Of a DNA stretch of 64,000 bases, positions 21,273 to 61,607 are shown piece after piece. The DNA comes from a virus: IMG/VR virus record IMGVR_UViG_3300045988_076381; one strand, given 5' to 3'. Position 1 is the first letter of the stretch; every line of letters starts with the position of its first letter. The notes under the pieces were generated by a model that searched no databases, was not told where the DNA came from, and saw only the letters and a program-made list of their open reading frames with translations. Made by a program: the position numbers and the translations under genes.

Positions 21273-21464
21273 AAACTTTTGTCTGAAAGTATGGTAACAT
21301 ACAGGTGAATAGATCAAAATCGATGAAGTCTAATTTAGATAATATCGAGGTAAGTATGAATTTAAAGGATTCATACCACTGTAACGCGTAGGTGTTGAAA
21401 CTATTAATTATTTATAAATTATATTTTTGCAGAAGAGATAATTGTTTTTATCGTGGAAGAATAT

Positions 21465-21472
21465 TAACTTTG
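21465..21472 (+). promoter_or_regulatory. -7 box TAacTTTG inside the intron, upstream of the endonuclease gene
   Basis: Matches TAnnTTTG, 31 nt upstream of ATG 21503. Confidence 0.4.
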
Positions 21473-21502
21473 TATTTATTACATTTTAATATTTAAATTC
21501 TT

Positions 21503-22270
21503 ATGGATAAAAACAGAAAACTAGAATTTGAGGGAAAGATATTTCCTACGAATAATTGTGGCGAGCTAAAAATCATCGAATATAATGGAGCAACTAATGT
21601 AGTGGTGGAGTTTATTACTACTAAAACTATACATTCTACCACTATGAATAACATCAAGAAAGGATCAGTATCCGATCCTATGTATCCAACAGTATATGGA
21701 ATAGGATATATGGGTATAGGAGAGTATAAAAGTAGGACTGGGACTAGTCCTCAAACAACTTGCTATAAACGATGGAAAGAAATTCTTAATCGATGCTATA
21801 ATCCTAAATGTTCTGCTTATAAATTTTATGGAGGAAATGGAGCAATTATATGTGAAGAATGGAAAAATTTCCAAAATTTTGCATCTTGGTGGTATTCTAA
21901 CTTTCCAAATTGGGAAGGAATTAAAATTGCTATAGATAAAGATTTATTATGTAAGGGAAATAAGGAATATTGTCCTGAATACTGCTGCTTTTTACCTCAA
22001 GAAATAAACGAAGCTCTTACTTTAAGAAAAAAGGAAAGAGGGGATTATCCAGTTGGAGTACGGTTAAAAGAAGGAAAAATTATTGCTCAAATTAATTACA
22101 TGGGAAATAAAAAACATTTAGGAACATTTTCCACTGTTGAAGATGCTTTTGCAAAATATAAAATAGAAAAGGAAAAGTGTATGAAAGAATATGCTGATAA
22201 ATACAAAAATATACTTTCGGAGAGAGTGTATCAAGCATTATATAACTACACTATAAATATAGATGATTAA
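21503..22270 (+). CDS. intron-encoded AP2-domain homing-endonuclease-like protein
   Basis: C-terminal GVRLKEGKIIAQINYMGNKKHLGTFSTVEDAFAKYK is an AP2-like DNA-binding motif. The ORF lies wholly inside the intron. Confidence 0.55.
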   Translation: MDKNRKLEFEGKIFPTNNCGELKIIEYNGATNVVVEFITTKTIHSTTMNNIKKGSVSDPMYPTVYGIGYMGIGEYKSRTGTSPQTTCYKRWKEILNRCYNPKCSAYKFYGGNGAIICEEWKNFQNFASWWYSNFPNWEGIKIAIDKDLLCKGNKEYCPEYCCFLPQEINEALTLRKKERGDYPVGVRLKEGKIIAQINYMGNKKHLGTFSTVEDAFAKYKIEKEKCMKEYADKYKNILSERVYQALYNYTINIDD

Positions 22271-22441
22271 TAGAATAAAATATACCCAAGAGTGATCTAC
22301 TCCTACAGGTAATGCTGAGGATGAAAATGTACGCTGAACCGTCTGATGATTAAATCAGAATATCTTTATTTACATCTTCAATAAAGTAAGGAGGAGACTC
22401 CCGGAAGTAAGAGATAAAAAACTCTTACGATAACAAAATTG

Positions 22442-22604
22442 GGAAGAAGAAGATGTTAGCCGAATAATCCTAACAATGTCTGAGGAAGATACTGACTGGC
22501 AGACTAAGGAAGATACTATTCTATCATATTATAATGGATTGAATAGAGTAATAGAAGGAGATAGAGATATTATTGACAATAACTCTTTTCTTAAACAAAG
22601 ATAA
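22442..22604 (+). CDS. ferritin-like protein, exon 2 of 2
   Basis: In-frame continuation (M)EEEDVSRIILTMSEEDTDW...FLKQR, stop at 22602-22604. Confidence 0.65.
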
Positions 22605-22623
22605 TAATTTAATATAATAACTT

Positions 22624-23268
22624 ATGTTAGTTCTAGATAATATTAATTCAGTCTCGGATGTAATTACAAATTCCTCATCGGAATTATTTGTAATAAACGA
22701 TAAAAATACTACATTAGACCATCTTAAGAATATAATCAATCCTATATTAGATGGTTATTATGAACCATTTGTATTTAATTTAGATACGTTTAGAAAATGG
22801 GTAGAAAGTTCCGAAGAGGATAATTCTACGGATATAGACGCATGTTTTCAGACTATATACGACTGGTTCATTGATTTAGAGTGTCCTAGTGGTTTAACTT
22901 ACTATATTAGGGATACTCTTTATAAGTTACGGTTAGAGGACTATATTAAATTAGAAAATAGTCTACTTAAAGAATTATACGCGGAATTAATTAAAAAGTA
23001 TGATACTAATTATTCCTCATATAAAGAAATTGAAGCTTTTCTTCAAACATATGATGAAGACAAAATAAACAAAATCATAGACTATTTGCTAAATACAAAT
23101 TTCGAATATGACATTCGAAAATTAAATGGAAAGATTATTCTCCTTTCCGAGGAGGAGAATTCCATTTCATGTAGTAGAAAATTTAACCGCTCAGAATTTG
23201 CGGAAGATTCTGATGTATTTCAATGGCTTGAGCATAATTTTAATATTACATATTATCATTTAGGATGA
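22624..23268 (+). CDS. hypothetical protein, SD(I/V)ITNSSSE-motif family member 1
   Basis: N-terminal NSVSDVITNSSSELFVI. Confidence 0.6.
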   Translation: MLVLDNINSVSDVITNSSSELFVINDKNTTLDHLKNIINPILDGYYEPFVFNLDTFRKWVESSEEDNSTDIDACFQTIYDWFIDLECPSGLTYYIRDTLYKLRLEDYIKLENSLLKELYAELIKKYDTNYSSYKEIEAFLQTYDEDKINKIIDYLLNTNFEYDIRKLNGKIILLSEEENSISCSRKFNRSEFAEDSDVFQWLEHNFNITYYHLG

Positions 23269-23690
23269 GATTTAAAATACATTCAATATCAGATATTATA
23301 ACAAACAGTAGTTCAGAAGTATTTCTTGTTTCTAAAGATAGTGAGATAAAGAATATAAAAGGATTGCAAGAGAAACTGAATTTAGGAGACGTATCTGATT
23401 TACTAAAGTTTATACATACTTATAGTTGGGGTATAGATAAAGACTATAATTATGGAGATTTATGTATAACACTTGATCATATACGTGATATAACTAATGC
23501 TTTCAGTAACTACTTCAATGATAGTGACTGGGATGATAATATCTCAAAAATAGGTATATTACGTGATGAGATGTACAAAGTATTTGCTGAGAGTTTTAAA
23601 GATATAGTAGCTATAGTAATAGATAATGGCTATTATTATGAATTTATTGCAAATAATCCAAATTTAAAATATGAAAACTTTCCATATTAA
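23265..23690 (+). CDS. hypothetical protein, SD(I/V)ITNSSSE-motif family member 2
   Basis: N-terminal KIHSISDIITNSSSEVFLV; ATGA overlap with member 1. Confidence 0.6.
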   Translation: MRFKIHSISDIITNSSSEVFLVSKDSEIKNIKGLQEKLNLGDVSDLLKFIHTYSWGIDKDYNYGDLCITLDHIRDITNAFSNYFNDSDWDDNISKIGILRDEMYKVFAESFKDIVAIVIDNGYYYEFIANNPNLKYENFPY

Positions 23691-23979
23691 AATTCATTCT
23701 ATTTCAGATATTATTACTAATAGTAGTTCCGAGACCTTTTGTTTTATTTATAGTGAAGATATATCTAAAGTATTAAAAGTATTATCTCCTTATTTTGGGA
23801 ACTATGATGTTTTTGATGAATGTTGTGCACAAATATATGGTCCTTTTCAAGAAGGTATAGAGGATCCTTATATTGAAATTAGATGTTCCGAAGATTATAG
23901 ACCTTCGTTACTAGAAGAAGGATTAAGATATGTATTAGATAAAAATAATATTGATTATACAATATCAAAAGAAGAATAA
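23671..23979 (+). CDS. hypothetical protein, SD(I/V)ITNSSSE-motif family member 3
   Basis: N-terminal KIHSISDIITNSSSETFCFI; 20-nt overlap with member 2. Confidence 0.6.
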   Translation: MKTFHIKIHSISDIITNSSSETFCFIYSEDISKVLKVLSPYFGNYDVFDECCAQIYGPFQEGIEDPYIEIRCSEDYRPSLLEEGLRYVLDKNNIDYTISKEE

Positions 23980-24271
23980 AAAATATCTTTATATATGGAG
24001 TCAATAATAGAGTTCCAATAATTTTTGTATTTGATTCTAAATACTATAATGAAACTACTATAAGTAATATATTAAATAAACTATTAGAGCCTGAGGGAAG
24101 ATCATACGAAGATTTCTTTAGAAAGATCCAACCGGCTATTGAAGTAACAACATGCTGCAATCCTAAAGACTTAGTAGTACTAACTTATGAGATACCCTAT
24201 TGGATGAGACTTTATTTAGAGAATTTACATAATGTAAAAGGTTATAGTTGTTTAACTTTATAAATTAAGAG

Positions 24272-24739
24272 ATGAAAGATTTTAAACACTTTGGAGTTAG
24301 GTTTAAAGGTATAAGTAGTTGTAATTATACCGCAATATGGAGTAATTTAATTACAATACGTCTTGGAGATAAAGAGATTAAAGAACTTCCAGCAGATAAA
24401 GCTGAGTTTTATGACGTTTCATTAGGAGATAAATGTGTTACTGGGAAATGTAATTTCTGCTTAGTACCAGAAACACATATACTTACTAATGAGGGTGATA
24501 AATATATAACAGACATAAAAACAGAAGACTTAGTGTTTTCTTACAATGAGTGTAGTGGAGATATTGAGTTAAAAAAAGTAGACCAAGTATTTGAAAGAGT
24601 ATATGAAGGAGAACTTATTGAAGTGGTTACAGAAATCGGAACTTTAAGACTGACTCCGAATCATAAAATATATACTAGAAATAGAGGATGGATTGCAGCG
24701 TGTAATCTACAAGTGTCAGACGAATTGTTAGAATTTTAA
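24272..24739 (+). CDS. radical-SAM-like protein N-terminal fragment fused to the N-terminal half of a split intein
   Basis: 62 aa of host sequence end in DKCVTGKCNF. Intein block A follows (CLVPETHILT), then block B (TPNHKIY), then a stop. Confidence 0.75.
   Translation: MKDFKHFGVRFKGISSCNYTAIWSNLITIRLGDKEIKELPADKAEFYDVSLGDKCVTGKCNFCLVPETHILTNEGDKYITDIKTEDLVFSYNECSGDIELKKVDQVFERVYEGELIEVVTEIGTLRLTPNHKIYTRNRGWIAACNLQVSDELLEF
24458..24736 (+). mobile_element. split intein, N-terminal half (about 93 aa)
   Basis: Starts at Cys63 (CLVPETHILTNEGD...) and contains TxxH. Several stop codons follow in every frame before the next ORF. Confidence 0.7.
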
Positions 24740-24773
24740 TATCCGAAAAGTTGGAAGTATTAAAATAGATTAT

Positions 24774-24781
24774 TATTTTTG
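24774..24781 (+). promoter_or_regulatory. -7 box TAttTTTG upstream of the free-standing HNH gene
   Basis: Matches TAnnTTTG, 31 nt upstream of ATG 24812. Confidence 0.4.
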
Positions 24782-24811
24782 TATATAAAATAATAACTAA
24801 TTTTAATACTT

Positions 24812-25933
24812 ATGAAAACATGTAAATATTGTGGATGTGATATATCCCACCTAAGAGCTAATGCTACCACTTGTGGATCGAGAGAATGTATAAATGCGTA
24901 TAGAAGAGAACGTAAATCCAAACCTAAGGAGCCAAGAACTTGCGAAATTTGTGGAACGTCTATAGACGATCTTCCTGGACAAAGGAGAATTTGTAAAAAT
25001 CCAGAATGTGAAGCGGAGCAAAAAAGAAGAAAATATGCACAGGCCTTAAAAGAAAAAATATGTAAAAAATGTGGAGATACTTTCCTTGGCACTTCTAAAC
25101 AAACCTGTTGTGAAAACTGTAGAAAACATAAAGATATAACATTTAAAGTTATAGAACAGAAAGTAGTTTGTGAAGATTGTGGAGCCTTACTAAGGACCGA
25201 AAGTAAAAAAGTTAATGGAAAAACTAAGGAGATTATAGCAAAAGGAATGTGTGATGATTGTAAACAAAAACATAGAGAGAAACTTAGTTTACAAATGAAA
25301 GAACATAATCCTATGTTTGATCCTGAGATAGTTAAAAAAACTTCGGAGACAAGACGATATAAGTATCTACAAAAATGTGAAGAAGAAGAAAGGCTTCCTT
25401 ATGTAAGAAAAGGATGTAAAGGTGAAACTAGGGAAGAAATGATTCAAAGAATGAAAGAACACAATCCTATGTTTGATCCTGAAACTAGAGCAAAGGTCAG
25501 CAAAACTCTTAAAGAAAAAATTTTATCTGGAGAAATTATTTATGCTAAAGGTCCAGAACATCATTTGTGGAAAGGTAATAGAAATTTTAATAAGGCAGTA
25601 CGTATAGAATTAAGAAAATGGGTTAAAGAACAAATGGAAAAGGTTCATTATATATGCCAAAAATGTGGGAAAACACGCACCGAATTACATGTACACCATT
25701 TACATCCATTAAGGGATATAATTTTGGATACTTTAAATAAAAATAATTTAACTATCATAGATATAAATAGTATGGAGGGTTCAGAACAATATTTTGATAT
25801 AATTAAACAAATAATTGAATATCATTATCAACATAATGATATCGGAATTGTTGTTTGTCCCCAATGTCATAATGAACTAGATAGTTATTATAAAAGAAAA
25901 ACTCATGAAAATAGTAAGTATAAAGAAAGTTAA
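24812..25933 (+). CDS. free-standing HNH homing endonuclease with zinc ribbons and NUMOD3-like repeats
   Basis: Many CxxC pairs, the duplicated motif MKEHNPMFDPE(I/T)..K.S.T, and C-terminal HVHHLHPL...VVCPQCHNELD (HNH). Confidence 0.75.
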   Translation: MKTCKYCGCDISHLRANATTCGSRECINAYRRERKSKPKEPRTCEICGTSIDDLPGQRRICKNPECEAEQKRRKYAQALKEKICKKCGDTFLGTSKQTCCENCRKHKDITFKVIEQKVVCEDCGALLRTESKKVNGKTKEIIAKGMCDDCKQKHREKLSLQMKEHNPMFDPEIVKKTSETRRYKYLQKCEEEERLPYVRKGCKGETREEMIQRMKEHNPMFDPETRAKVSKTLKEKILSGEIIYAKGPEHHLWKGNRNFNKAVRIELRKWVKEQMEKVHYICQKCGKTRTELHVHHLHPLRDIILDTLNKNNLTIIDINSMEGSEQYFDIIKQIIEYHYQHNDIGIVVCPQCHNELDSYYKRKTHENSKYKES

Positions 25934-26009
25934 TTATAATGGAAAGGTATATAATATTGGAGTGAGAGATAATAATAATTATTTTGCATCTAATATTTTA
26001 GTACATAAC
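25905..26009 (+). mobile_element. split intein, C-terminal half (35 aa)
   Basis: MKIVSIKKVNYNGKVYNIGVRDNNNYFASNILVHN ends in the canonical HN, followed by the +1 Cys. Confidence 0.7.
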
Positions 26010-27877: not shown

Positions 27878-27904
27878 AGAATATTTATGTAAATAAAAAT
27901 AATT

Positions 27905-30963: not shown

Positions 30964-30967
30964 ATCT

Positions 30968-42344: not shown

Positions 42345-42657
42345 AAATTAAGTGCCCCTATTTAATACAAATAAATAGAAAACCATTTGAATTGCTAGGA
42401 ACTCGCGAAGATTTAGTAACTAAAACATCAGAAGAAATTCTAAATGTAAATGTTAAAAATACTAAATTATGTGATAATTAGCAGCTAAGCTCCTAAGGAT
42501 GTAATCTATGGAGAAAGTTCAACGACTATCTCGAAAGAGAGTAGGGCTAAGTAGCTCGAAGCGGATGGTATAATATTTTAATATTATAATGAAATAGTCT
42601 AATCTTACACGAAAGTGTAAGAGTATATATGGAAACGATATATACGTAATATAATTG
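42345..42657 (+). mobile_element. group I intron (family A), ORF-less
   Basis: gttcaacgacta at 42517 (classical R element), gaaatagtc at 42591 (S-like), gccc 11 nt in can pair with exonic gggU, and a terminal G. Removal gives ADSG-AGKSS. Confidence 0.75.
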
Positions 42658-43638: not shown

Positions 43639-43725
43639 ATGGCTATAGTATTACCAACAAGTAAAATACAACCAACAGAAACTGAACCTAGGGTATTAGT
43701 TATATTCTCGAAGCCAAAGAGTGGT
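43639..43725 (+). CDS. Sak4/AAA_24-like ATPase, exon 1 of 2
   Basis: MAIVLPTS...RVLVIFSKPKSG ends in the middle of the Walker A motif. Confidence 0.7.
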
Positions 43726-43765
43726 AAATTTTATTAAAATATTTGGATAAGTAAAATTTTATGGA

Positions 43766-43773
43766 TATCTTTG
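43766..43773 (+). promoter_or_regulatory. -7 box TAtcTTTG, with TTTG 20 nt upstream, inside the intron
   Basis: TTTG at 43742-43745 and TAtcTTTG at 43766, 29 nt upstream of ATG 43802. Confidence 0.5.
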
Positions 43774-43801
43774 TAATTATTATTAATACAAATATATAAT
43801 T

Positions 43802-45025
43802 ATGAAGAATAAAATTTTACAACTAAGTAAGAATTGTAATAGTCTAGAAATAGCTAGAATACTATCATTATCTCTAAATGAAGTAGAAAAAGTTTTAATT
43901 GATGAATATTTTCAAAAGAAATGGAAGATATCTAAAAAGGATCTTGAAGAATTAGCTGCAAGAATCTATAATGAATCTCCAACTCTACTATCAGATGAAT
44001 TTAATATATCAGAAGTAACATTAAAAAAATATTTAGCAGATTGCAAATTGTTTAATACTAAGAAAAATGTTATCTATGTTCAAAAATCAGAGGAAGAAAT
44101 TGAAAAATTAGTTCCGGATATAGTTTTAGATTATAATAACCAATTATCTATTGCACAATTAATGGTTAAATATAAGTTATCTAAAGATAAAGTTAAAGAA
44201 ATTTTACATAATAATGAAATTTCAACCGGAAAAGTGACCTGTAATGAACATATATTTGATATAATTGATTCGGAAGAAAAGGCATATTGGCTAGGGTTCC
44301 TATATGCAGATGGAGCAGTGGGGAGTGCTGATAATACTATTGAATTAGCATTAAAACTTTTGGATTGTAAACATCTATATAAATTCAAAACTTTTATAGA
44401 AGCCAAAAGGGATATAAAAATAGAAACTAGTAAAGTTAAAAGATGCAGATTCTCTGTAAGTAGTAAACATTTAAAGTCACAACTTATTAAATTAGGTTGT
44501 ACTCCTCAAAAGTCCTTAACTCTTAAATTTCCAACTAAAGAACAAGTTCCAGATGACTATATCATTCCATTTATAAGAGGGTATTATGATGGAGATGGAA
44601 TATTAACATATAGTTGTTCTACCACTGGTAGAACAGTTTTAGCTACTGGTATGTTGGGAACTGAAAATTTTTTAACTGGAGTTTTAAGTAAGTTTAAGTA
44701 TCCATTACATTCTATTTTGCGTTTAGCTAGTTTGGAAGGATCAAGCGAATGTAAACAAGTAAATTGGTCAAAAACTGATTCTGAGGAGTTTTTAAATACT
44801 ATTTACAAAGATGCTACAATTTTTTTGGATAGAAAATATTTACGATACAAATATTTTAAAGACAATGGATTTGCCGTCCAAAAAAGTAATTTTTTGGATA
44901 ATGACAGAGCAATATCGGAAGAGTCTAAACAATGGATTAATCAGTATTTTAGTATAGATATTGATTCCTTATTGCATGATAATTCCGAGATAAATATAGA
45001 AAGTAACGATTCTATATCATCGTAA
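43802..45025 (+). CDS. intron-encoded LAGLIDADG homing endonuclease (double-motif)
   Basis: YWLGFLYADGAV and FIRGYYDGDGIL. The stop codon lies inside the conserved intron block tcgTAAcgcg. Confidence 0.85.
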   Translation: MKNKILQLSKNCNSLEIARILSLSLNEVEKVLIDEYFQKKWKISKKDLEELAARIYNESPTLLSDEFNISEVTLKKYLADCKLFNTKKNVIYVQKSEEEIEKLVPDIVLDYNNQLSIAQLMVKYKLSKDKVKEILHNNEISTGKVTCNEHIFDIIDSEEKAYWLGFLYADGAVGSADNTIELALKLLDCKHLYKFKTFIEAKRDIKIETSKVKRCRFSVSSKHLKSQLIKLGCTPQKSLTLKFPTKEQVPDDYIIPFIRGYYDGDGILTYSCSTTGRTVLATGMLGTENFLTGVLSKFKYPLHSILRLASLEGSSECKQVNWSKTDSEEFLNTIYKDATIFLDRKYLRYKYFKDNGFAVQKSNFLDNDRAISEESKQWINQYFSIDIDSLLHDNSEINIESNDSISS

Positions 45026-45203
45026 CGCGTAGGTGTTGAAACTGTATTTATTTAAATACAGAATAAAATATACCCAAGAGTGCTCTGCTCCTATTTAATA
45101 GGATGAAAAAGTACGCTAAACTGGATCAGAAATAACTGATCGATAATCAATGAGGGAAACCTCCAGAACTAAAAGATAAAAAGCTTTTAGGATAATATAA
45201 TTG

Positions 45204-45995
45204 AAATCAACGGCTTTAAGCCTATTAGATAATAACTTAATACTAGATACAGAAAAGGGAACAGCGTATATTGAAGCATTAAAAGTAGATATTTCTTCAG
45301 TTAAAGATATATTAGAAGTATGTAAACAAGTTAAGGCAGCAGGATATCCTTATAAATATATAACTCTAGATACTTTAACTTCTTTAGAGGAAATTCTACA
45401 ACCGTATGCTTTAAATCTATGGAAGAAATCTAACGCATATAATCCAGAAAAGAATCCAGAACAACTAAAAGTAACTGATGTATATAGTTTACCTTTTGGG
45501 TTAGGCCAAAAGTATATGAGAGATTCATATTTAGCAGTAATCGGATTATTACAACAAGTATGTAAAAGAATTATTCTAGTATGTCATTCAAAAGATGCGA
45601 AAATAAATGAAAATGAATTAACTATAAAAGATATTGATTTAGCTGGAAAATTATCTGATATTATTGCATCTAGATATGATGGAGCTGGATATTTATATAG
45701 GGATATAAATGATAATACTATTATTACTTTTGATATAAAACAGCTTGCAGCAGAATGTAAATGTAGAGTTCCTAGATTAGATGGTAAGAAGTTTGTATTA
45801 ATCGAGAATCGAAATGGGGAATTAATACCTCATTGGGATCGTATTTATTCTTCCGAACCTTATAGTGGAGAAGATGTAGTTACTACTCCCCAGATTAATG
45901 TTACAGATATTTTAGATAAGGAAGATCAATCTGAAAATTCTAACATATCTGAAGAGGAATCTGAAGTAGATAAACTTTCAAATATAGAATTATAA
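45204..45995 (+). CDS. Sak4/AAA_24-like ATPase, exon 2 of 2
   Basis: KSTALSLLDNNLILDTEKG...ITLDTLTSLEE...; acidic C-terminus. Confidence 0.7.
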   Translation, partial: KSTALSLLDNNLILDTEKGTAYIEALKVDISSVKDILEVCKQVKAAGYPYKYITLDTLTSLEEILQPYALNLWKKSNAYNPEKNPEQLKVTDVYSLPFGLGQKYMRDSYLAVIGLLQQVCKRIILVCHSKDAKINENELTIKDIDLAGKLSDIIASRYDGAGYLYRDINDNTIITFDIKQLAAECKCRVPRLDGKKFVLIENRNGELIPHWDRIYSSEPYSGEDVVTTPQINVTDILDKEDQSENSNISEEESEVDKLSNIEL

Positions 45996-50586: not shown

Positions 50587-51361
50587 TTTAATATCTAGAG
50601 AAGTATTATCTAAATTTAAGATAAAAATATTATCAATAAATAGTTTAGATATAACTGATGAAGTATATTTTTCTGATAAATATTCTAATTATATATCTAA
50701 TTCTAAATTAAAACTGATAAATCCTAATGAAGGAGGATCATTTAAAACATATTTAGAAGGATTAAAATCTAAATCTACTGGATCTCTGGATTTAGGATCA
50801 GCAGTTCATGAGTTAGTTCTACAAAATGAATCATTTGAATTAAATTCTTATATCAAACCATCTGGTAAAATTGGGAAAGTTATAGAGGTTGTATTTAAAT
50901 ATAGAAATAAGGGATATTCCATATTAAATGCAATTCGAAAAGCTTCCGAAGAAGTTTCTTATTACATATCTCAATTAACTGATACAAGAATATCTAATAT
51001 AATCTCATCTGGATTTAAATATTATCTTTATTTATATAAAAATAAAGATATTAAATATGATAAAGAACAAATAATCTTGGATGAAAAATCTAGGGAAACT
51101 TGTATAAAATGTGTAGATTCTATTAGAAGAAATTCTGATGCAATGAATCTCCTTTCCCCAGATGAATTTTCATTAGATCAGTATTTAAATAAGAATGAGG
51201 ATACTATAGTGATGGAAATAGTAGTAACCTTCCCTAACAGTACTTCCGATCCAAATGCAGAAGAAGTAAGTATTTTGTTAAAGTTAAAAGCTAAGATAGA
51301 TAATTGGAATTTAAATATAGATGAGGGTTTATTAAATCTAAATGATTTAAAAACTACAGGT
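50567..51361 (+). CDS. PD-(D/E)XK (RecB/Cas4-like) exonuclease, exon 1 of 2
   Basis: GSAVHE...; ends LNLNDLKTTG (D...K catalytic region). Confidence 0.65.
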
Positions 51362-52636
51362 AAGTAAAATTTTTTTATTGTATTTTATTTGTTTTATTTC
51401 ATTAAATGTATTTAATTTGTATATTATTAAATTATACAATAAAAATACATTTATGAATAATCTAAATCAAGCTATTAGTGATTACGAACATTTATTTATA
51501 GGAATTTGTGAATTAAGTAAAAAATATAAAATTCCTAATAAAGAAATTAGAAAAGCGTTAGAAGATAAAGGATATTATTTAGGAAAAGGAGTATCTCCAA
51601 AAAGTGTTGTGCATATTAAACTTGCAGTAGAGGAATATAAAAATATTCTTAATGCTGGTGAAGAACCTAATATTCATCAACTGGCATTAAAGTATGATAT
51701 TTCCGATACGTCTATAAAAGACAATTTAATTAGATTAAATCTTCCTGTTGTAAGATACCCTAAAAAAATCCATTTTGATGAACATGTCTTTGATGTTATA
51801 GATACTGAAGAAAAAGCATATTGGCTAGGATTTTTAACTGCTGATGGGTATATTTATAGTAGAGATAATACATTTGGAATTAGTCTAGCTAGTATAGATA
51901 AGCATCATGTAGAAAAATATGCCACATTTCTTAAATGTCCTCAACATGTTAAATTTAAGAATAACGAATATGCTGGAATATATAGATGTGATTTAGGAAA
52001 CGCTCATGTAAAGCAAGTATTACAAAAATATGGATTTACTGCTTCTAAATCTTTTGACTGTACCTTTTTAAAAGACCAGTTTTTTGCAAATTCCGATTTA
52101 ATAAGACATTATATTAGAGGATATTTTGATGGAGATGGCTGTGTCAGTTATAAAAAAAAGTATAGAAAAACAATTAATGCCACTATTTATATTCCGATAG
52201 TTTCTATAGTTGGAACAGAAGCTTTTTTACAAGAATTAAGAAATAAATCAAATTTAATTTGTCTTTTTCAGTCACAACAAAATCTATGGAATTTATATGG
52301 ATCTGGAAAAAAGGCAAAAGATTTTCTTTATTACATTTATAATAACGCTACTATTTATTTAGATAGAAAATACAATATTTATAGAAATTATATTGCCCCA
52401 CACTTAGAGAAATCAAGTGTTCCGCAGTGGCCAATATCGGTGGATACTGAAATGTAAATACCGAGATAAATTCAGAGATTACGAAAGGCTCTGAATCATC
52501 GTAACGCGTAGAAGGTGAATAAATATAATCCTTCCAAGAGTGGCTGCCACCTTAAAGGGTGAAAATGTACGCTGAACTATATCGAATAACAAGATATAGA
52601 AATAAAGGATAAAAAGCCTTTATGATAACAAAATTG
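51362..52636 (+). mobile_element. group I intron (family B) carrying a LAGLIDADG endonuclease gene
   Basis: Blocks gtaacgcgtag (52501), ccaagagtg (52534), aaaatgtacgctgaac and the 3' end gataacaaaattg. Removal gives DLKTTG-KPWYLFPG. Confidence 0.75.
51453..52457 (+). CDS. intron-encoded LAGLIDADG homing endonuclease
   Basis: YWLGFLTADGYI and YIRGYFDGDGCV; the first ATG of track ORF 51378..52457 is at 51453. Confidence 0.85.
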   Translation: MNNLNQAISDYEHLFIGICELSKKYKIPNKEIRKALEDKGYYLGKGVSPKSVVHIKLAVEEYKNILNAGEEPNIHQLALKYDISDTSIKDNLIRLNLPVVRYPKKIHFDEHVFDVIDTEEKAYWLGFLTADGYIYSRDNTFGISLASIDKHHVEKYATFLKCPQHVKFKNNEYAGIYRCDLGNAHVKQVLQKYGFTASKSFDCTFLKDQFFANSDLIRHYIRGYFDGDGCVSYKKKYRKTINATIYIPIVSIVGTEAFLQELRNKSNLICLFQSQQNLWNLYGSGKKAKDFLYYIYNNATIYLDRKYNIYRNYIAPHLEKSSVPQWPISVDTEM

Positions 52637-52948
52637 AAACCATGGTATTTATTCCCAGGATCTATAGTAAAAGAAACAGGAGAATTTGTTGAAGGTTCCT
52701 TTCAACATTATCATTACTATCGCCAATTATCTATGTATTTCTGGATGCTCAAGCAATATCTAACTTCGGAAGGATATAAATTAAACAAATCTTATTTAAA
52801 TATAATCTCTGTACAAACTATTCCTAATTATTCTACAGTAGTATTTAGAATCCCAAATAAATGGTTTGTTAAAGGATTGAAGGAATTTAAAACCTTACTA
52901 TCATACGCTGCTTATGCTGAATATAATAAAGAAAAAATATTATCATGA
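52637..52948 (+). CDS. PD-(D/E)XK exonuclease, exon 2 of 2
   Basis: KPWYLFPG...HYYRQLSMYFWML (QxxxY motif of RecB-family nucleases). Confidence 0.65.
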   Translation, partial: KPWYLFPGSIVKETGEFVEGSFQHYHYYRQLSMYFWMLKQYLTSEGYKLNKSYLNIISVQTIPNYSTVVFRIPNKWFVKGLKEFKTLLSYAAYAEYNKEKILS

Positions 52949-54101: not shown

Positions 54102-54145
54102 TCTTAAATATAATAAAATATTTATATAAATATATAATCAATCAG

Positions 54146-54182: not shown

Positions 54183-54237
54183 AAAAACATAACAGTAATA
54201 ATTTTAACAGTGTTGCTACTTAAAGCCGTGATTAAAT

Positions 54238-55395: not shown

Positions 55396-55697
55396 TGATT
55401 GTATTTAAATACAATTTGTGCTAATAATAAGAAATTATTATTCGAAACTAGGTTAACTGCTGGGACGCCTGAGATGGTAATCAGCAACCAAGCTACAGAT
55501 TTAAATTCTGTAGAAGGCTCATCGACTATTCCTGAAATGGAAGTAGAATCAAGCGATTCGAAATGCCTAGCCCTTAGCATTATATCTAACACAGATATAG
55601 ATGAAGGTGAAGATATAGTCAGTTCTCATATTAATAAGGAAGTATGAGGAGGTTTTATTAACCCGTATAAGAGTAGCGAACTTATATGAACACGAAG
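55396..55697 (+). mobile_element. group I intron (family A), ORF-less
   Basis: aagatatagtc at 55610 is an exact match to the S element and tcatcgacta at 55519 is R-like. A P1 hairpin places U55395 opposite G55418. The intron ends in G. Removal gives GDSNH-DGDW. Confidence 0.7.
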
Positions 55698-55835
55698 GAC
55701 GGTGACTGGGGATGGCTAAATAATATTGTTCTTGCCTCTAAATTAGAGCAATTAAATATAGAATCTTATATTTCCGATCTTCCAATTGATAAATTTGATG
55801 TTGGAAATAATTCTATACTATTCATGCATGGTGAT
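55698..55835 (+). CDS. Mre11/SbcD-like metallophosphoesterase, exon 2 of 3
   Basis: DGDWGWLNNIV...NNSILFMHGD; 138 nt, in frame with both neighbours. Confidence 0.65.
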
Positions 55836-56405
55836 ATATTTTTCATATTTTTAATATAATTATTTGGGTTCCATAGAAATAATTTATATTTGTTAAATAA
55901 TAATATATTTAATAAATAAAGATCATTCTAAAATGCTCCTTTCCTTATTAGGAACAGAAGATTTTTAAATTCTATACAAGATGTATTTTCTACTAAGTAC
56001 ACTTTGGAATATAATCATAATGATAAGAATTCTAAAACTAGAGTACTAGAAATAGCTTGTAGACCAGGGCTTAACATTTTACATAAATTATATTCACACT
56101 CAAAAATATATTTAAAAAGAAAATATGAAAGATATTTAGAATATTGCCGTCTATATGAGGAATCATATAGAGAATTAGAAACCAATAACGGGGAAGGCTG
56201 TGATGTCAATCCCGTGATAAGTACAGAAAGTAAAGAGTCTGTGCCATCGTAACGCGTAGAACTTGAACCTCGAAAGAGAATAAAATAGTTCCAAGAGTGG
56301 TTTCTACCCCAACACTTTTATAAGTAGTGGGTAAAAAGGTACGCTGGACTATAGCAAAAAGAAGCTATAGAAGTTAGGATAAAAAGCCTAACGATAACAA
56401 AATCG
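55836..56405 (+). mobile_element. group I intron (family B) with a decayed LAGLIDADG gene
   Basis: Blocks gtaacgcgtag (56249), ccaagagtg (56291), aaaaggtacgctggac and the 3' end gataacaaaatcg. Removal gives FMHGD-KDSDSQFKG. Confidence 0.7.
55933..56252 (+). pseudogene. remnant of a LAGLIDADG homing endonuclease gene
   Basis: Fragments LLGTEDF and ...IYLKRKYERYLEY...SVPS-stop are colinear with the C-terminal third of 43802..45025 (MLGTENFL...IFLDRKYLRYKYF...SISS-stop). Both LAGLIDADG motifs are missing and the frame is broken. Confidence 0.6.
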
Positions 56406-56702
56406 AAAGATAGCGATTCCCAGTTTAAAGGAATGCCTCTTACATTGAATGATAGAACAATAAATTGGGTAAATGATTATATTTATGATTCTGGATTAAA
56501 ATTTAAAGACAATCTCTATGTAGTAAAAGGAGATTTACATCAATATGCTATAACAGAATCCAGAAGGTTTCAATATATTTCTGTTCCAAGTTTATATGGA
56601 TCTTCTAATTATATAGCTGCTAATTTTGGGAAGACTAAATGGGGAGTAGGTTTTATGGAAGTATTTAATGACCATGTAACAACTGGAGTAATTAAGGAGT
56701 AA
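56406..56702 (+). CDS. Mre11/SbcD-like metallophosphoesterase, exon 3 of 3
   Basis: KDSDSQFKGMPL...VVKGDLHQYA (GxH motif). Confidence 0.65.
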   Translation, partial: KDSDSQFKGMPLTLNDRTINWVNDYIYDSGLKFKDNLYVVKGDLHQYAITESRRFQYISVPSLYGSSNYIAANFGKTKWGVGFMEVFNDHVTTGVIKE

Positions 56703-57223
56703 TGAAAGGATTTCTTGCAACATTCAGTACAAGAGAATATATTAATATAGATAATATTCAGAAAATAGATACTTATTGTTATAATAATTATAATCTTACT
56801 TCAATATTATCATTTAGAAAATGTAAAGTTAATGAAGATATTGTTTTAGATTGTGGTGTAGATGGATTTTATATAGAATGCTCTCCAGAATTACGTAAGT
56901 TATTTTTAGATACTAAAATGTCTCTTAAAGAATTTTTAGATATCCTTAAATTAGCAACGACTCTAGACGATTATGAGTTATTTATTTGTTGTTTATATTA
57001 TTTTAATAATCCTAGAAGGATAGTAGATCTTGAAGATGGATTAAAATATTTTTTACAGGAGTGTAATTCTAATTCTGATTATATAGATATCTATAAAGAT
57101 ATATATGGAACTTATATAGAAAGTATTCCTCTATATCCATTCTATATAAATTTTAAAGATTTTATTGAAAATAATTACTTAGCTATTAACTTTAATAATA
57201 CGGAATATATATTCGAAAAATAA
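56702..57223 (+). CDS. hypothetical protein (paralogue family, member 1)
   Basis: LKEFLDILKLATTLDDYELFICCLYYFNNP. Confidence 0.55.
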   Translation: MKGFLATFSTREYINIDNIQKIDTYCYNNYNLTSILSFRKCKVNEDIVLDCGVDGFYIECSPELRKLFLDTKMSLKEFLDILKLATTLDDYELFICCLYYFNNPRRIVDLEDGLKYFLQECNSNSDYIDIYKDIYGTYIESIPLYPFYINFKDFIENNYLAINFNNTEYIFEK

Positions 57224-57237
57224 ATACAATAAACACA

Positions 57238-57783
57238 ATGAATGCATTTATATTTTTATCAGAGGATTCTTCTAAAACTCCTATATTATATTTAGATAAT
57301 CCTCAGGAAGTTCGTGAATTTTGTAAGAAAAATGATATCGATTTAAATAGTTATACTGATGCAAATTGGGATCTTACTTATGCTATTGAGGATTCTGATT
57401 ATTCTGTATGTATATCTGATATAACTTCTAAGGAATTTAGAAACTTTTTAAAAGATTACTGCATGAATCTTTGGGATGTAGTAGATTTTATTACATTATC
57501 TAAAAAACTTAATGAATTTGATTTATATATCAGTATTTTATATTATAGTGAGGATTTTATAGAAAATATACTTGAAGAATACCCAAAAGCTCTTAAACGA
57601 TTTATAGGAGCTCTAGAGCTAAATCATAGTACAGAGAGTATTAAAGCTTTAGTAGACCTAGTTTTTAAAGAGAACATAAATACAGATTGTATAAATTATA
57701 TAAATGTAGATGATATATTAAATGATTTGGATATAGTAGAAACTGAAAATTTAAGTTATTTATTTAATCCAAATATACAGTAA
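57238..57783 (+). CDS. hypothetical protein (paralogue family, member 2)
   Basis: LWDVVDFITLSKKLNEFDLYISILYYSEDF. Confidence 0.55.
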   Translation: MNAFIFLSEDSSKTPILYLDNPQEVREFCKKNDIDLNSYTDANWDLTYAIEDSDYSVCISDITSKEFRNFLKDYCMNLWDVVDFITLSKKLNEFDLYISILYYSEDFIENILEEYPKALKRFIGALELNHSTESIKALVDLVFKENINTDCINYINVDDILNDLDIVETENLSYLFNPNIQ

Positions 57784-57787
57784 TTAA

Positions 57788-58345
57788 ATAATAATAAAGG
57801 GATTTATATATAATAGAAATGAGGGAATTGAACATCCTCTAATTTATCTCAATGATGATAACTTTTTTGAGTTTTGCAATAATAATCATATAGATACATC
57901 TTTTAAATTTGAAGAGTGTAAAGATACTTACAAAGGGATAATTTATAATATTCCAAATACACAGTTTTCTGTATGTTTGAATATCGCAGAAAAAGACCTA
58001 AAATACTTAATAATGGATGATTTAACTCCACTTGGTGTTGATATTAAGGAATTAAGAAATATTGTTATTTTTTACAATGATTGTTGGGGAGAAGATGTAG
58101 CTGCATTTATTCTATATCGTGTCCTTGGATGTATAACAAGCCTAGATACAGAAGATTTAGATTATTGTCTAGAACAATATGTAGGAAAAGTATGTGATGA
58201 GGATTATTTTACATTGTTCACAAAGCAACTTAATATAGTTATCGATCCTCTATTAGAGGACTATGTAGATTATAGAAGTTATATTATAGAACACTTTACA
58301 CTAGCAGAATATAAAGATGATATATATGTTTTTAACCTTTATTAA
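57788..58345 (+). CDS. hypothetical protein (paralogue family, member 3), start codon unresolved
   Basis: The open frame from 57788 is homologous to the N-terminus of member 2 but has no ATG, GTG or TTG before TTG 57977. Confidence 0.4.
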   Translation: MIIKGFIYNRNEGIEHPLIYLNDDNFFEFCNNNHIDTSFKFEECKDTYKGIIYNIPNTQFSVCLNIAEKDLKYLIMDDLTPLGVDIKELRNIVIFYNDCWGEDVAAFILYRVLGCITSLDTEDLDYCLEQYVGKVCDEDYFTLFTKQLNIVIDPLLEDYVDYRSYIIEHFTLAEYKDDIYVFNLY

Positions 58346-58384
58346 CATTTAAACTCAGATTTATTTTTATAATTAAATTAGTAT

Positions 58385-59146
58385 ATGGAAGTAACATTAG
58401 AACAATTACTAAAAGGAAAAGCAACACAAATAGGAAAGAAAGAATTCTATTCTACTAAGGATTATATAGATCCCTTTCTTCAATCTATGAGTAAATTTAC
58501 AGATGAATTTATCTGTAAAGTAAAAGAACCAAAACAAATTAGTATTGGTGAAGAGAAAGATGTAATGTATAATAGGGTTTATATTCAAGCAGTTTTACCT
58601 AAAAACTATTGGGAGTATGAAGATCATCAGCAAGTAATATCTTTAATTTATGGATTAGATTGTAAAGTCCCAGTAGTAAAAATTTTTAGAGGAGGGATTA
58701 ATATGGCGTGTTTAAATCTTTGTGTGTTTAATGCTACATATTTAAATACACAAGTATTAGAGCCACAAAAGATGTATGATATTTCTCCCATTAAAAACCT
58801 AATGAATTTAACAGATGATTTAGGAGTTAAGATTAAAAAATTAAAGAATACATTTATATCTAGAGATAAAGTAGATATGACTAATACTCTGGGCAAATGG
58901 GTAGATTTTTGTATTAAATCTGAGTATAAAAGTGATTTCGGAAAAGCTAAATTATCCCCAACTACTGCAATATCTGCATATAAAAATTTAGTTTTAAATC
59001 CCGACTCAGAGTATTATATTCCGGAAGATGAGGAAGTTTCGTTATTTACCGCATATAACGCATTTACTGAATTATTAAGGGATGATAAAGATGTTGTCAA
59101 TCCTTTTGAAAAGAATTTACTTTTAAATAATTTATTTGAAATTTAA
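58385..59146 (+). CDS. DUF3871/DUF932-like protein (putative)
   Basis: RGGINMACLNLCVFN resembles the GFxNmVCxNLC core of that family, from memory. Confidence 0.4.
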   Translation: MEVTLEQLLKGKATQIGKKEFYSTKDYIDPFLQSMSKFTDEFICKVKEPKQISIGEEKDVMYNRVYIQAVLPKNYWEYEDHQQVISLIYGLDCKVPVVKIFRGGINMACLNLCVFNATYLNTQVLEPQKMYDISPIKNLMNLTDDLGVKIKKLKNTFISRDKVDMTNTLGKWVDFCIKSEYKSDFGKAKLSPTTAISAYKNLVLNPDSEYYIPEDEEVSLFTAYNAFTELLRDDKDVVNPFEKNLLLNNLFEI

Positions 59147-59147
59147 T

Positions 59148-59741
59148 ATGTACAATGATCAATCTAATGCTTTAGGAGAATTTATTTTTCAATCTAAATA
59201 TGCTAGATATAATTCTAATCTGAAAAGGAAAGAGACCTTTGAGGAATCTGTAGATAGAATATTACAGATGCATTTAAAACATCTTAAAGATAAATATCCA
59301 GAAGTATTAAATAATGCAGAATTTAATAATGATTTATTAGAAGCTTTTGAGGAGTATAAAAATAAAAATGTTTATGGATCTCAGAGAGCTTTGCAATTCG
59401 GAGGCGATCCTATTTTAAGAAAGAATGAAAAAATCTTCAATTGTTCATATACGTATATAGATAGTCTAGAAAGATTTGAGCAAATTGAGTATTTACTGTT
59501 ATGTGGTTGTGGAGTGGGGTGTTCTGTTGAATATAAACACGTAAATATTCTTCCCATGATGCCTGAAAGACTTAATAGCTCGGTTGAAGAATATGTAATC
59601 GGGGACAGTATTGAAAGTTGGAGTTTAGCTATTGGTAGATTAGTTCAATATTATTTTAATTCTAACGTAACTTATCCTAAGTTTGATTATTCTAAAATTA
59701 GACCTAGTGGAAGTTTAATATCAGGCGGATTTTTGGCACCT
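59148..59741 (+). CDS. ribonucleotide reductase large (catalytic) subunit, exon 1 of 3
   Basis: LLCGCGVGCSV...YSKIRPSGSLISGGFLAP. The ATG at 59148 follows the upstream stop. Confidence 0.8.
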
Positions 59742-60573
59742 AAAATGTCTGGGATTTAATAAAGCGATTTATTATCTAAACTTTCTTAATTGCTGGGAAC
59801 TCCTAAAGCATTTTCTTACTAATTATTAATTTTAAATACTATAGTGACAATGGAAAATGATGTTACAATGGACAATCAGCAGAATTTATCTCTCTTCACT
59901 CCGGTAAAAGGTTATGAAGATTATTATTTAATTAACGAAGATGGAGATGTTTATTCTATTAGAAGTAAGAGATTACTAACTTCTCATTATAAGCATCGAT
60001 ATTGGCAATATGAATTTAATGTAAACGGAAAGGTTACTTATCCACAAAAACATAGATTAGTGGCTTTAACATTTATTCCTAATCCGGACAATAAGCCGTA
60101 TGTGAATCATATTGATGGTAATAGAAATAATAATTATGTATCTAACTTAGAATGGTGTACAGCTAAAGAAAATACGGCTCACGCTAGAAGAGTTGGATTA
60201 ATAACCGATGATGAATATGTAGAATATACTTTATTAAATTCTAATAAAGAGGTATTATACTCTGCTTTCGGATATAAGAAATTTTTACAAAAGACAGGAA
60301 TGTCTGATGGTGTTTTATATAGAAGTAAAAATACAAATAAACCAATAAGTAGAAGGAAATTTAAAGGATGTTATGTTTATGTAAACAGACAGCCTAAAGG
60401 ACGTAAAGAGATATAGATTTTCAACGACTATCCCGAAGGGAGTACATTACAAGCTAATGGTAATGGAAACAGAAAGCATCTCTCGTAGATGTTGATATAG
60501 TCTGATCTTATATGAAAATATAAGCAGTTCATAAGAGAACGCAGTAATTCTTGCGAGATTACTGGAACACTTG
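59742..60573 (+). mobile_element. group I intron (family A) carrying a NUMOD4-HNH endonuclease gene
   Basis: ttcaacgacta at 60420 (R), gatatagtc at 60494 (S), agcagttcataagagaacg near the 3' end, and a terminal G. Removal gives GGFLAP-GPNGL. Confidence 0.8.
59850..60416 (+). CDS. intron-encoded HNH homing endonuclease (NUMOD4 + HNH_3 type)
   Basis: GYEDYYLINEDGDVYS (NUMOD4) and VNHIDGNRNNNYVSNLEWCTAKENTAHA (HNH). Confidence 0.85.
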   Translation: MENDVTMDNQQNLSLFTPVKGYEDYYLINEDGDVYSIRSKRLLTSHYKHRYWQYEFNVNGKVTYPQKHRLVALTFIPNPDNKPYVNHIDGNRNNNYVSNLEWCTAKENTAHARRVGLITDDEYVEYTLLNSNKEVLYSAFGYKKFLQKTGMSDGVLYRSKNTNKPISRRKFKGCYVYVNRQPKGRKEI

Positions 60574-61338
60574 GGACCAAATGGTTTAAGAAATGCTCTA
60601 AATAAAATAGATTCTTTACTAGATAATGTTCATAAAACTACTAGAAAACTCTCTCCACTTAACTGTGCTGATATATTATCACACTGTGCAGACAGTGTAC
60701 TTTCGGGTGGTGTGCGCAGGTCTGCTTTAGCTATATTATTCTCTCCTAATGATGAGGAGATGTATAATTCTAAAGTAGGTAATTGGTTTTATGATAATCC
60801 TCAACGTGGAAGATATAATGCTTCTGTTGCTTTGGAGAGAAGTGATGATAATAAAGAAGTATTTAATAAAATCTTTGAATCTACTAAAGAATATGGAGAA
60901 CCTGGGTTTTTCTTTAGGTCTGATTCTGGTATAGGTTGTAATCCATGCTTCGAGATTGGTTTTAAACCCGTACTAGAAATACAGAAACCTGATGGAGTAT
61001 CTAAACAAACCGGGATACAGTTTTGTAATTTGATCTCTATCTCAGGTAAAGAATCTACAACAGAAGAAAAATTCTATAAACAATGTAAAGCAGCTGCTAC
61101 TATTGGAACAATTCAAGCTACATATAATTCTTTCCCTTTCTTGGGTGAAGTAACAGAGCAATTAGCTAAGAATGATCCATTAATTGGAGTATCTATTAGC
61201 GGGATTATGATGAATCCTGATATATTATTAAATGAAAATATTCTGCGTAAAGGAGCTGAGATTATTAAAGAACAAAATAGCAAAATAGCTAACTTACTAA
61301 GAATTAATCCTGCATCTAGGACTACTTGTATTAAGCCT
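60574..61338 (+). CDS. ribonucleotide reductase large subunit, exon 2 of 3
   Basis: GPNGL...LSGGVRRSA...EYGEPGFFF...CNPCFEI...FCNLISI...TTCIKP. Confidence 0.8.
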
Positions 61339-61607
61339 AAAATATTGGGCATTTAAATAGTAATATTTAAATATAAACACCGTGAATTGCTGGAATGGTT
61401 TATTTCTATATAAACCTAATCAGCAGCCAAGTTAAATCGGGTTCAACGACTATCTAGAAATAGAGTACAGTGTAAGCTAATGACACTGGAAGCGCGGTGC
61501 TCCTATTATTTAAATAGGATGATGATATAGTCTAATCTATATGGTGACATATAGCAGTTCATAAGAGAACGTATATAAGAGTTGCGTCTTATATAGAATA
61601 TATAATG
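61339..61607 (+). mobile_element. group I intron (family A), ORF-less
   Basis: gttcaacgacta at 61441 (R), gatatagtc at 61524 (S), and the same agcagttcataagagaacg block as the first RNR intron. Removal gives TTCIKP-DGNISTL. Confidence 0.8.

Follow-up and report, generated by a model that had tools for sequence, protein, structure and literature searches.

A 64,000-nucleotide stretch of IMG/VR virus record IMGVR_UViG_3300045988_076381 (the window) carries eight insertions, packed within 40 kb, which are very probably mobile group I introns of two structural types splitting six genes of a crAss-like gut phage. Four of them (family A) fit the Rfam model RF00028 and the other four (family B) fit a covarying group I fold, bearing out a preliminary description of the sequence which had proposed two separate intron families. 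No further introns were found in the window by a regular-expression scan for family A cores and a scan for family B cores with R1, a covariance model built from the family B alignment described below. The window total is therefore eight.

All eight elements directly follow an exon T and end in G, and their excision in silico restores the interrupted proteins. It yields a ferritin-like protein (PF00210), a DnaB_C helicase with an intact P-loop (ADSG|AGKSS, the bar marking the junction), an ATPase with the P-loop PKSG|KSTAL, a PD-(D/E)XK (PDDEXK) protein that matches DUF3799, a metallophosphoesterase-like protein, and a class II ribonucleotide reductase whose alignment to PDB 1L1L is unbroken over both junctions. 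IMG/VR also holds about 20 closely related contigs of 80-167 kb each (the relatives; individual sequences are given L numbers). Orthologues of the ATPase in related phages match Pfam AAA_24, and intronless alleles of the ATPase, helicase and ferritin genes in related phages join at exactly the predicted junctions.

The motifs on which the two families had been proposed were all present as quoted, at the right coordinates and in copy numbers far above chance expectation. In family A, the R-element string GTTCAACGACTA occurs at 42517 and 61441, with TTCAACGACTA additionally at 60420; the S-element strings are AAGATATAGTC at 55610 and GATATAGTC at 55612, 60494 and 61524. The first family B block, GTAACGCGTAG, lies at 21381, 45022, 52501 and 56249, the second, CCAAGAGTG, at 22286, 45074, 52534 and 56291, and GTACGCT at 22329, 45111, 52567 and 56339. 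The 3' end reads GATAACAAAAT in three members (22429, 52624 and 56393) and ATAATATAATTG at 45192. Four copies of GTAACGCGTAG were observed in the window against 0.07 expected, and four of the composite CCAAGAGTG...GTACGCT against 0.00; every copy of either is on the plus strand and within the proposed elements. The ferritin and ATPase introns also share a 22-mer (21381 and 45022) and a 23-mer (22272 and 45060), and the small ATPase hairpin is at 45042.

All eight introns of the window are on the plus strand. The first of family A, a 313-nt element without an open reading frame (ORF) at 42345..42657, interrupts the P-loop of the DnaB-like helicase gene and scores 83.1 bits with RF00028 (42335-42621), above the gathering score of 50 bits. 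The 302-nt ORF-less intron at 55396..55697 is the first of two in the metallophosphoesterase-like gene (GDSNH|DGDWG; 67.0 bits at 55401-55640) and is present at the same length in relatives. The ribonucleotide reductase gene contains an 832-nt intron at 59742..60573 and a second, ORF-less intron of 269 nt at 61339..61607 (CIKP|DGNIS), the latter scoring 101.7 bits (61329-61554). Only 19.8 bits were obtained for the 832-nt intron, in its 3' half (60368-60524), because an HNH gene on the plus strand at 59844-60416 (HNH_3, PF13392, E 1e-8) splits its core. This gene starts about 40 nt past the P4 5' strand and ends just ahead of the R element; by eye it is therefore located in P5, overlapping P4' and P6. 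The RF00028 alignments of family A cover P3, P4-P6, P8 and P9 and leave an unaligned insert of about 31-38 nt after GACUA, which by eye forms two hairpins, P7.1 and P7.2, in the classical phage IA pattern.

Rfam scans of 44-64 kb, at the gathering threshold and at E<=10, reported 61329-61554 and the weak match at 60368-60524 only, and 350-nt stretches recovered the 83.1- and 67.0-bit introns. The misses in the large scans are a filter artefact, worth remembering when AT-rich phage DNA is scanned. An identical 18-nt sequence, GCAGTTCATAAGAGAACG, stands right after P9 in both ribonucleotide reductase introns (60524-60541 and 61554-61571). In sequence these two introns appear closer to each other than to other family A members.

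Family B was defined from 33 distinct cores, taken from a pattern scan of IMG/VR and aligned with MAFFT, on which a hand-derived structure was tested. The core order is P3-P4-P5-P6-P7-P3'-P8-P7', in which P3 and P7 cross as the group I pseudoknot. Standard pairs fill 96.9% of 1239 pair cells, compared with 72% after shuffling and 29-44% when partners were slid, and both sides have changed in 26 of 38 pairs. Pairing reaches 99% in P3, 99.5% in P4, 88% in P5, 95.5% in P6, 99% in P7.1 and 93% in P8, and all four pairs of the P7.1 stem covary. Pairing in P9 and P9.1 is 99.6%, again with strong covariation; asymmetric gaps in the MAFFT alignment made the inner pairs of P9.1 uncountable, so that only three consistent pairs were counted there.

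Between P7 and P3', family B has a single composite P7.1/P7.1a hairpin with the conserved internal loop UGAA...AAUA(A/U)AAU, and the P9.1 hairpin loop is AUAAAAAG. The design of P7 is alike in both families, with an A-U pair, a bulged C and five pairs (AAC-GACUA/UAGUC-U in A, AAC-GCGUA/UACGC-U in B), two of the five pairs differing between them. R1 matches exactly the four family B introns in the window and aligns two family A introns weakly but in register, at 19.8 bits (the 55396-55697 intron) and 15.3 bits. Extra helices between P7 and P3', a trait of subgroup IA, are present in both families, by eye in family A (P7.1/P7.2) and by covariation in family B (P7.1/P7.1a). From this hairpin we presume that family B may resemble subgroup IA1, RF00028 giving no match.

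In the structural alignment the shared blocks of family B sit in equivalent core elements, as their reading as intron parts had implied. The block GTAACGCGTAG is J6/7 with the P7 5' strand, CCAAGAGTG is the junction after P7.1 with the first two bases of P3', AAA(T/G)GTACGCT is J8/7 with the P7 3' strand, and GATAACAAAATYG is the 3' tail that closes on the terminal G. The blocks are not derived from exons: intronless alleles lack them. By structural definition all family B elements are thus predicted group I introns.

The first of them, 1169 nt long at 21273..22441, interrupts the ferritin-like gene and matches R1 in two parts (21320-21422, 65.5 bits; 22268-22335, 32.5 bits). Its 5' portion comprises an internal guide sequence (IGS) GTCTG (21281-21285), P2 (21289-21302), P3 (21311-21316) and the P7 5' block (21381-21391). 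P7.1 pairs 21392-21395 with 22282-22285 and P7.1a pairs 21401-21408 with 22266-22273; P3' (22293-22298), P8 (22301-22321), J8/7 with P7' (22324-22335) and P9.1 (22408-22427) follow. The 1478-nt intron at 43726..45203 splits the P-loop of the AAA_24-type ATPase gene and scores 118.9 bits at 44902-45117. Its elements are the IGS (44870-44877), P2 (44878-44897), P3 (44905-44911), P4 (44915-44920 with 44983-44988), P6 (44996-45015), the P7 block (45022-45032), P7.1/P7.1a (45033-45073), P3' (45081-45087), P8 (45089-45103) and J8/7 with P7' (45106-45117). In the PD-(D/E)XK (DUF3799-like) gene, the 1275-nt intron at 51362..52636 scores 152.5 bits (52424-52573) and has its IGS at 52392-52399, P2 at 52401-52419, P3 at 52427-52433, the P7 block at 52501-52511, P7.1 at 52512-52533, P3' at 52541-52547, P8 at 52548-52561, P9 at 52577-52599 and P9.1 at 52602-52623. 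The last, 570 nt at 55836..56405, is the second intron of the metallophosphoesterase-like gene (144.8 bits), with the IGS at 56143-56150, P2 at 56151-56170, the P7 block at 56249-56259, P7.1 at 56260-56290 and P8 at 56305-56333. Its LAGLIDADG gene has been deleted, leaving a remnant ORF at 56004-56252.

The ferritin-intron guide, GUCUG, is 8 nt away from the 5' splice site, its pairing partner being the exon end CAGAU. The other three family B introns have a conserved UUGCC(G/C)U just ahead of P2, about 0.3-1.1 kb from the splice site. It falls in different reading frames in different introns and is therefore conserved as RNA, not as protein. UUGCC pairs with the exon end GGU and the first intron As; the ATPase-intron pairing is GUGGU|AAAU with AUUUGCCGU. 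Among relatives the guide covaries with the exon end (GGU/GCC, CCGU/GCGG, CGCU/GGCG). The ORF-less introns L031 and L083 form the same P1 pairing as a compact hairpin, GGU|AAUA...UAUUGCC, and L020 has the L083 core with about 815 nt at the P1 position, indicating that the LAGLIDADG genes are located in the P1 loop. The insertion site reads G(G/A)T|AAA in the three family B introns with a LAGLIDADG gene or remnant (43723-43728, 51359-51364 and 55833-55838), and several relatives' family B introns are found at Gly-Lys codons of P-loops.

Splicing would proceed as is usual for group I introns. The guide, which is GUCUG in the ferritin intron and otherwise UUGCC, would pair with the exon end, giving a U-G wobble; guanosine bound in P7 would attack at the wobble site, and the terminal G would then be used in exon ligation.

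Two LAGLIDADG genes of the window, both on the plus strand, occupy P1 loops. The gene in the ATPase intron (43802..45025, 407 aa) matches phrog_4645 (E 4e-52) and PF14528 at only E 0.03, its homologues carrying PF14528. That in the PDDEXK intron (51453..52457, 334 aa from ATG) matches PF14528 (E 1e-10) and phrog_4645 (E 4e-44). LAGLIDADG motifs (LGFLYADGA, IRGYYDGDG) are visible, and both products are predicted homing endonucleases with presumptive cleavage activity. The conserved domain of the ATPase-intron protein ends at LDRKY, near residue 350, and the ribozyme encodes the remaining tail: the frame crosses the IGS, P2, P3, P4-P5 and P6 and stops at a TAA inside GTAACGCGTAG. The UAA inside GUAACGCGUAG also ends the intact metallophosphoesterase-intron ORF of L040, and the PDDEXK-intron gene ends at a UAA in the P5 loop.

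The ferritin intron carries a putative HNH-type homing endonuclease gene (21503..22270, plus strand, 255 aa) in the terminal loop of P7.1a, closed by CUAUUAAU/AUUAAUAG. Its product matches phrog_953 (E 1e-60), phrog_2081 and phrog_374, all annotated 'HNH endonuclease' (E 1e-60 to 1e-42). No Pfam HNH or AP2 match to this product was found even at E<=1, and its C-terminal AP2 resemblance is by eye only. In the ATPase intron the P7.1a helix is empty and consists of the hairpin CUGUAUUUAUUUAAAUACAG. An ORF check placed the genes where the preliminary description had them, and two of its ideas stand: that homologous ribozymes carry their LAGLIDADG and HNH/AP2-like genes in different peripheral loops, the P1 loop and the P7.1a loop respectively, and that the small ATPase hairpin is the empty counterpart of the gene-holding ferritin loop. 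Elsewhere in family B, the P7.1a loop contains a GIY-YIG gene in L005 and L073 and a frameshifted homologue of the window-type HNH gene in L067. Endonuclease genes are separate loop modules, gained, lost and replaced independently of the ribozyme. LAGLIDADG genes dock in the P1 loop and HNH/AP2-like, GIY-YIG and T5orf172-like genes in the P7.1a loop, with HNH or GIY-YIG genes in P5 or the P1 loop of family A.

The relatives hold these introns in several states. The ATPase gene runs unbroken through the exact site PKSG|KSTALS in 21 of 23 relatives, and the other two have a 1478-nt intron. The ferritin gene is intronless in three close relatives (L146, L149 and L151, joined NEEQ|MEEED) and two distant ones; its intron is 320 nt long and ORF-less in three relatives (L147 among them) and has an HNH gene in two. 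In L144, L145 and L156-L158 the P7.1a loop instead contains an unrelated 129-aa T5orf172/MUG113 (GIY-YIG-like) gene, and in L152, L153, L155, L159 and L160 a 470-nt insert without a long ORF (L152:3540-4015). Cassette turnover is thus real among orthologous ferritin introns of related phages. The 470-nt insert has a higher G+C content, folds better than shuffled sequence (z = -3.8) and shows a terminator-like hairpin followed by a U run; the L152 copy matched no Rfam family, its sole similarity being to a 44-nt stretch in Lak phages.

Degenerate states were recognised by comparison with intact ones. In L040 and L061 the second metallophosphoesterase-gene intron is 1307 nt long and its LAGLIDADG ORF, of about 350 aa, is intact. 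The 570-nt copy of the window is an internal deletion of this longer intron: identity is 99.6% across the 3' 493 nt, and about 737 nt are missing. The helicase family A intron is absent in 10 relatives, 313 nt long in 10 and 1194 nt long in two (e.g. L122:428-1621), and in the longest form a GIY-YIG gene occupies the P1 loop, its frame continuing through P2-P5. In the 313-nt intron of the window this gene has been deleted except for its 3' end, which survives as the long P5 extension. Absent, empty, intact and degenerate states are the expected stages of a homing cycle, in which introns would spread by homing between co-infecting phages.

The ATPase intron of the window is identical to that of L131 at 1477 of 1478 positions, despite differing flanking genes. 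Exon markers in the window are of the L131 (donor) type from -7 to +34 and again at +143 and +201 to +231, and beyond -259 and +255 they agree with intronless L121 at all informative sites. A co-conversion tract thus flanks the intron (43719-43725 and 45204-45237). Intron-bearing alleles read CCAAAGAGTGGT|AAATCA at the junction (exon sequence CCAAAGAGTGGT|AAATCAACGG) and intronless alleles CCAAAATCCGGG|AAATCT (exon sequence CCAAAATCCGGG|AAATCTACGG). These changes are synonymous (TCC GGG to AGT GGT, TCT to TCA) and leave the protein unchanged; the exon-terminal U and the guide-pairing bases are present solely in intron-bearing alleles. Presence and absence at an identical site, together with co-conversion of the flanking exon, are the behaviour that defines a mobile intron. 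The ATPase intron appears to have reached this genome by recent homing from another phage.

The ferritin and ATPase introns had been described as nearly identical cores of one recently duplicated ribozyme, and neither part of that description was supported. They are 75% identical over 159 core positions and 65% at variable ones, against a family mean of 68%. They are nevertheless nearest neighbours in the sampled set, at the 89th percentile of all pairs. The shared stretches are mostly conserved across the family; the parts of the 22-mer and 23-mer without family-wide conservation are only the 4-bp P7.1 stem (GUGU/AUAC) and the internal-loop subtype. The exact 22-mer occurs in IMG/VR in this phage clade only, so a specific link between the two introns exists.

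We consider it reasonably likely that gene conversion copied the P7.1-P8 segment of the ferritin intron into an old ATPase-site intron, resident in the same genome, that had a LAGLIDADG gene of its own. From the guide to the P7 block, the ATPase intron is 80-82% identical to ATPase-site orthologues and about 70% identical to the ferritin intron over alignable pairs, with informative sites split 39:8 between L180 (the closest orthologue) and ferritin. Over P7.1-P3'-P8-P7', identity to the orthologues is 76-78% and to ferritin introns 90-93%, with informative sites at 3:13. In the 3' domain the figures are 68-74%, 73% and 15:6. The first two segments differ in a Fisher test (39:8 vs 3:13, p about 7e-6). 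On identity and informative sites, the ferritin-like segment at 45033..45117 (plus strand) is a probable gene-conversion tract. The direction would be from the ferritin into the ATPase intron. Ferritin introns have the GUGU stem in genomes without an ATPase intron. The window ATPase intron has the ferritin-type P7.1 stem and a long P7.1a hairpin; L176, L178, L180 and L181 have a 3-bp P7.1a and differing P7.1 stems, and L182 a long insert there.

Several points weigh against conversion. The tract contributes 16 informative sites, all within 85 nt that are also under the strongest constraint in the ribozyme; upstream, the three-way alignment that includes the ferritin intron is of poor quality; and L180 already has the same P8 type and 3' domain type as the window ATPase intron. 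The small number of sites, the types shared with L180 and the many positions of the P7.1-P8 segment that are conserved family-wide favour an account without recombination, in which the likeness there reflects subclade descent and structural constraint and L176, L178 and L180 have diverged. We regard this as unlikely. It leaves unexplained the sharp switch at the invariant P7 block, before, within and after the tract, as well as the ferritin-type stem of the window ATPase intron set against the 3-bp P7.1a and other stems of L176, L178, L180 and L181, and the GUGU stem that ferritin introns keep in genomes without an ATPase intron.

Less probable still is the model of the preliminary description, in which a recent within-genome duplication placed one ribozyme in the ferritin and ATPase genes and LAGLIDADG and AP2-type cassettes then invaded separate loops. 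The two introns are indeed mutually nearest in the sample and have the same 3' domain type, the 22-mer and 23-mer they share are confined to this phage clade, and the ORF-less ferritin introns identify the HNH gene as an addition. But the upstream half of the ATPase intron and its LAGLIDADG gene are orthologous to diverged ATPase-site introns, and that half is only about 70% identical to the ferritin intron. Homologues of the ATPase-intron LAGLIDADG protein were found at 68, 60, 55 and 54% identity in a large protein search (a query against viral contigs gave identical orthologues only). Those diverged homologues with enough flank lie at the same site between DnaB and the ATPase, with AAA_24 in three of four loci. 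The three LAGLIDADG paralogues (ATPase, PDDEXK and the L040 ORF) are all in the P1 loop and 32-39% identical, ATPase vs PDDEXK being 33%. The association of LAGLIDADG with the ATPase site is therefore old and not a fresh invasion, and the intron itself came by homing from another phage. Of the proposed cassette exchange, the distinct loops and the turnover in orthologous ferritin introns remain, and the ferritin/ATPase pattern points to a swapped piece of ribozyme.

Several observations weigh against the group I assignment of family B. RF00028 gave no family B match at E<=10 in a 44-kb scan, in the 320-nt ORF-less L147 ferritin intron or in 52375-52645, and the assignment is therefore supported by architecture, covariation and genetic behaviour rather than by a curated model. 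P7 is invariant as the search pattern fixed it, and is uninformative for covariation. P1 is short in the PDDEXK intron (GGU/GCC and two A-U pairs), and in the second metallophosphoesterase-gene intron it has an A-C mismatch. That family B is another ribozyme class, or an unspliced insertion tolerated by split genes, is nonetheless highly improbable: RF00028 is silent at any threshold tried, but the insertions interrupt catalytic motifs, separating for instance the Gly codon of a P-loop from the Lys codon, their excision is exact relative to intronless alleles, the fold covaries with the group I helix order, P3/P7 pseudoknot, bulged P7, exon-terminal U and intron-terminal G, and R1 aligns to bona fide group I introns in register.

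Family B is, by sequence searches, widespread in phages and not special to the window genome. The IMG/VR pattern scan gave at least 67 clear relatives among 122 matches listed on 120 stretches. A distant blastn search found the family in 79 phage records, including 36 of Staphylococcus and 15 of Clostridium phages, and also in several crAss-like phages, Lak phages, and Bacillus and Leptolyngbya phages. The full three-block pattern was present in 32 GTDB species genomes, for the most part metagenome-assembled genomes of gut Bacillota. A search for the block sequences in full-text literature gave unrelated primer matches only. In the gut phage L164 (MT835492.1 24546-28399), a family B intron at about 1670-2054 splits the helicase P-loop at GGT|AAA, 6 nt downstream of the site used by the window's family A helicase intron. 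It has a variant P7 (GUAGAGCGUAG / GUACGCC) and a degenerate LAGLIDADG remnant.

The window has a G+C content of about 27%, nearly all genes on the plus strand and a tRNA cluster at 7.9-12 kb. Rfam gives a seventh tRNA-like match within this cluster (8859-8928, 37.7 bits), where ARAGORN makes no call. Megablast of the window against phage records found no close relative among deposited phages. Its DnaB-like helicase is nearest to replicative helicases of crAss-like phages, at 27-34% identity, and the window probably derives from a divergent crAss-like phage. Measured from the helicase P-loop, the ATPase gene is about 376 or about 1390 nt farther away in L123, L125, L126, L133, L141 and L143 than in other relatives, which suggests extra helicase-gene insertions missing from the window. 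Group II introns were dismissed as candidates, as no reverse transcriptase gene and no domain V-like element were seen, in a search that was not systematic, and the fold is group I.

The kind of mobile DNA described here is already known, and no new kind of system is revealed. Goddard and Burt reportedly described in 1999, for the yeast omega intron, a homing cycle in which an intron invades, degenerates and is lost. Independent mobility of intron ORFs is said to have been reported by Mota and Collins in 1988, Sellem and Belcour in 1997 and Bonocora and Shub in 2009. As in that cycle, intronless, intact, degenerate and ORF-less states coexist here and the flanking exon is co-converted; what differs here is that all states occur together in one phage population and at several genes. 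Subgroup IA1, with its P7.1/P7.1a extension, reportedly goes back to Michel and Westhof in 1990. Family B likewise places a single extended, internally looped hairpin between P7 and P3', and LAGLIDADG genes are frequent in it. In T4 introns, endonuclease genes are located at P6a and P9.1; here, by contrast, some are in the P1 loop. Family B further differs from T4-type introns in its P7 sequences and its single composite P7.1/P7.1a hairpin.

Family A resembles the IA2 introns of phage T4 (td, nrdB, nrdD(sunY)), SPO1 and Twort, sharing R and S elements, P7.1/P7.2, loop endonucleases, a location in phage genes of nucleotide metabolism and replication, and patchy presence among related phages (Hausner et al. 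2014, PMC3984707). It is textbook knowledge that endonuclease genes reside in peripheral loops, that ORFs extend into the core and that ORFs enter introns which had none (PMC3984707). Yutin et al. (2021) reported up to 14 introns per genome, with LAGLIDADG intron ORFs, in crAss-like phages of 145-192 kb, and located those of the intron- and intein-rich Zeta and Delta groups via endonuclease domains (PMC7886860). The window resembles crAss-like phages in its helicase and its high intron density, and several crAss-like genomes have family B introns. Dense introns were also found in Jug phages with published subtype covariance models (PMC12880540). RNA families, ORF loop positions and population gain and loss are not described in either study (PMC7886860; PMC12880540). 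In Bastillevirinae, intron subgroup and nuclease are decoupled, some clades fall outside the subgroups, and Rfam and GISSD miss intron parts (PMC11878797). Our case differs in host and phage lineage, in the several unrelated inserts within one orthologous loop, and in the probable conversion between co-resident introns.

What is added is a structural definition of a widespread phage intron family beyond RF00028, and a map of three endonuclease docking sites (the P1 loop, the P7.1a loop and, as relatives indicate, P5). To these we add a population series with several unrelated inserts in one loop of one orthologous intron, and probable conversion between co-resident introns. It is possible, although we would stop short of calling it probable, that co-resident paralogous introns swap pieces of ribozyme core and that family B is perhaps an undescribed, widespread class with core-translated LAGLIDADG genes. 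If so, the invariant GUAACGCGUAG and CCAAGAGUG/GUACGCU blocks would be crossover anchors, and ribozyme segments would be shuffled as modules besides endonuclease genes. The P1-loop LAGLIDADG genes would moreover be translated through about 150 nt of core, tying endonuclease translation to ribozyme misfolding.

For the annotation of crAss-like genomes, such introns break P-loops and other core motifs. The window and its IMG/VR relatives form a natural series of intronless, empty, intact, degenerate and swapped-family endonuclease states. This series may be used to improve intron models, Rfam missing all of family B, and to study how ribozyme/endonuclease modules assemble and decay in phages.

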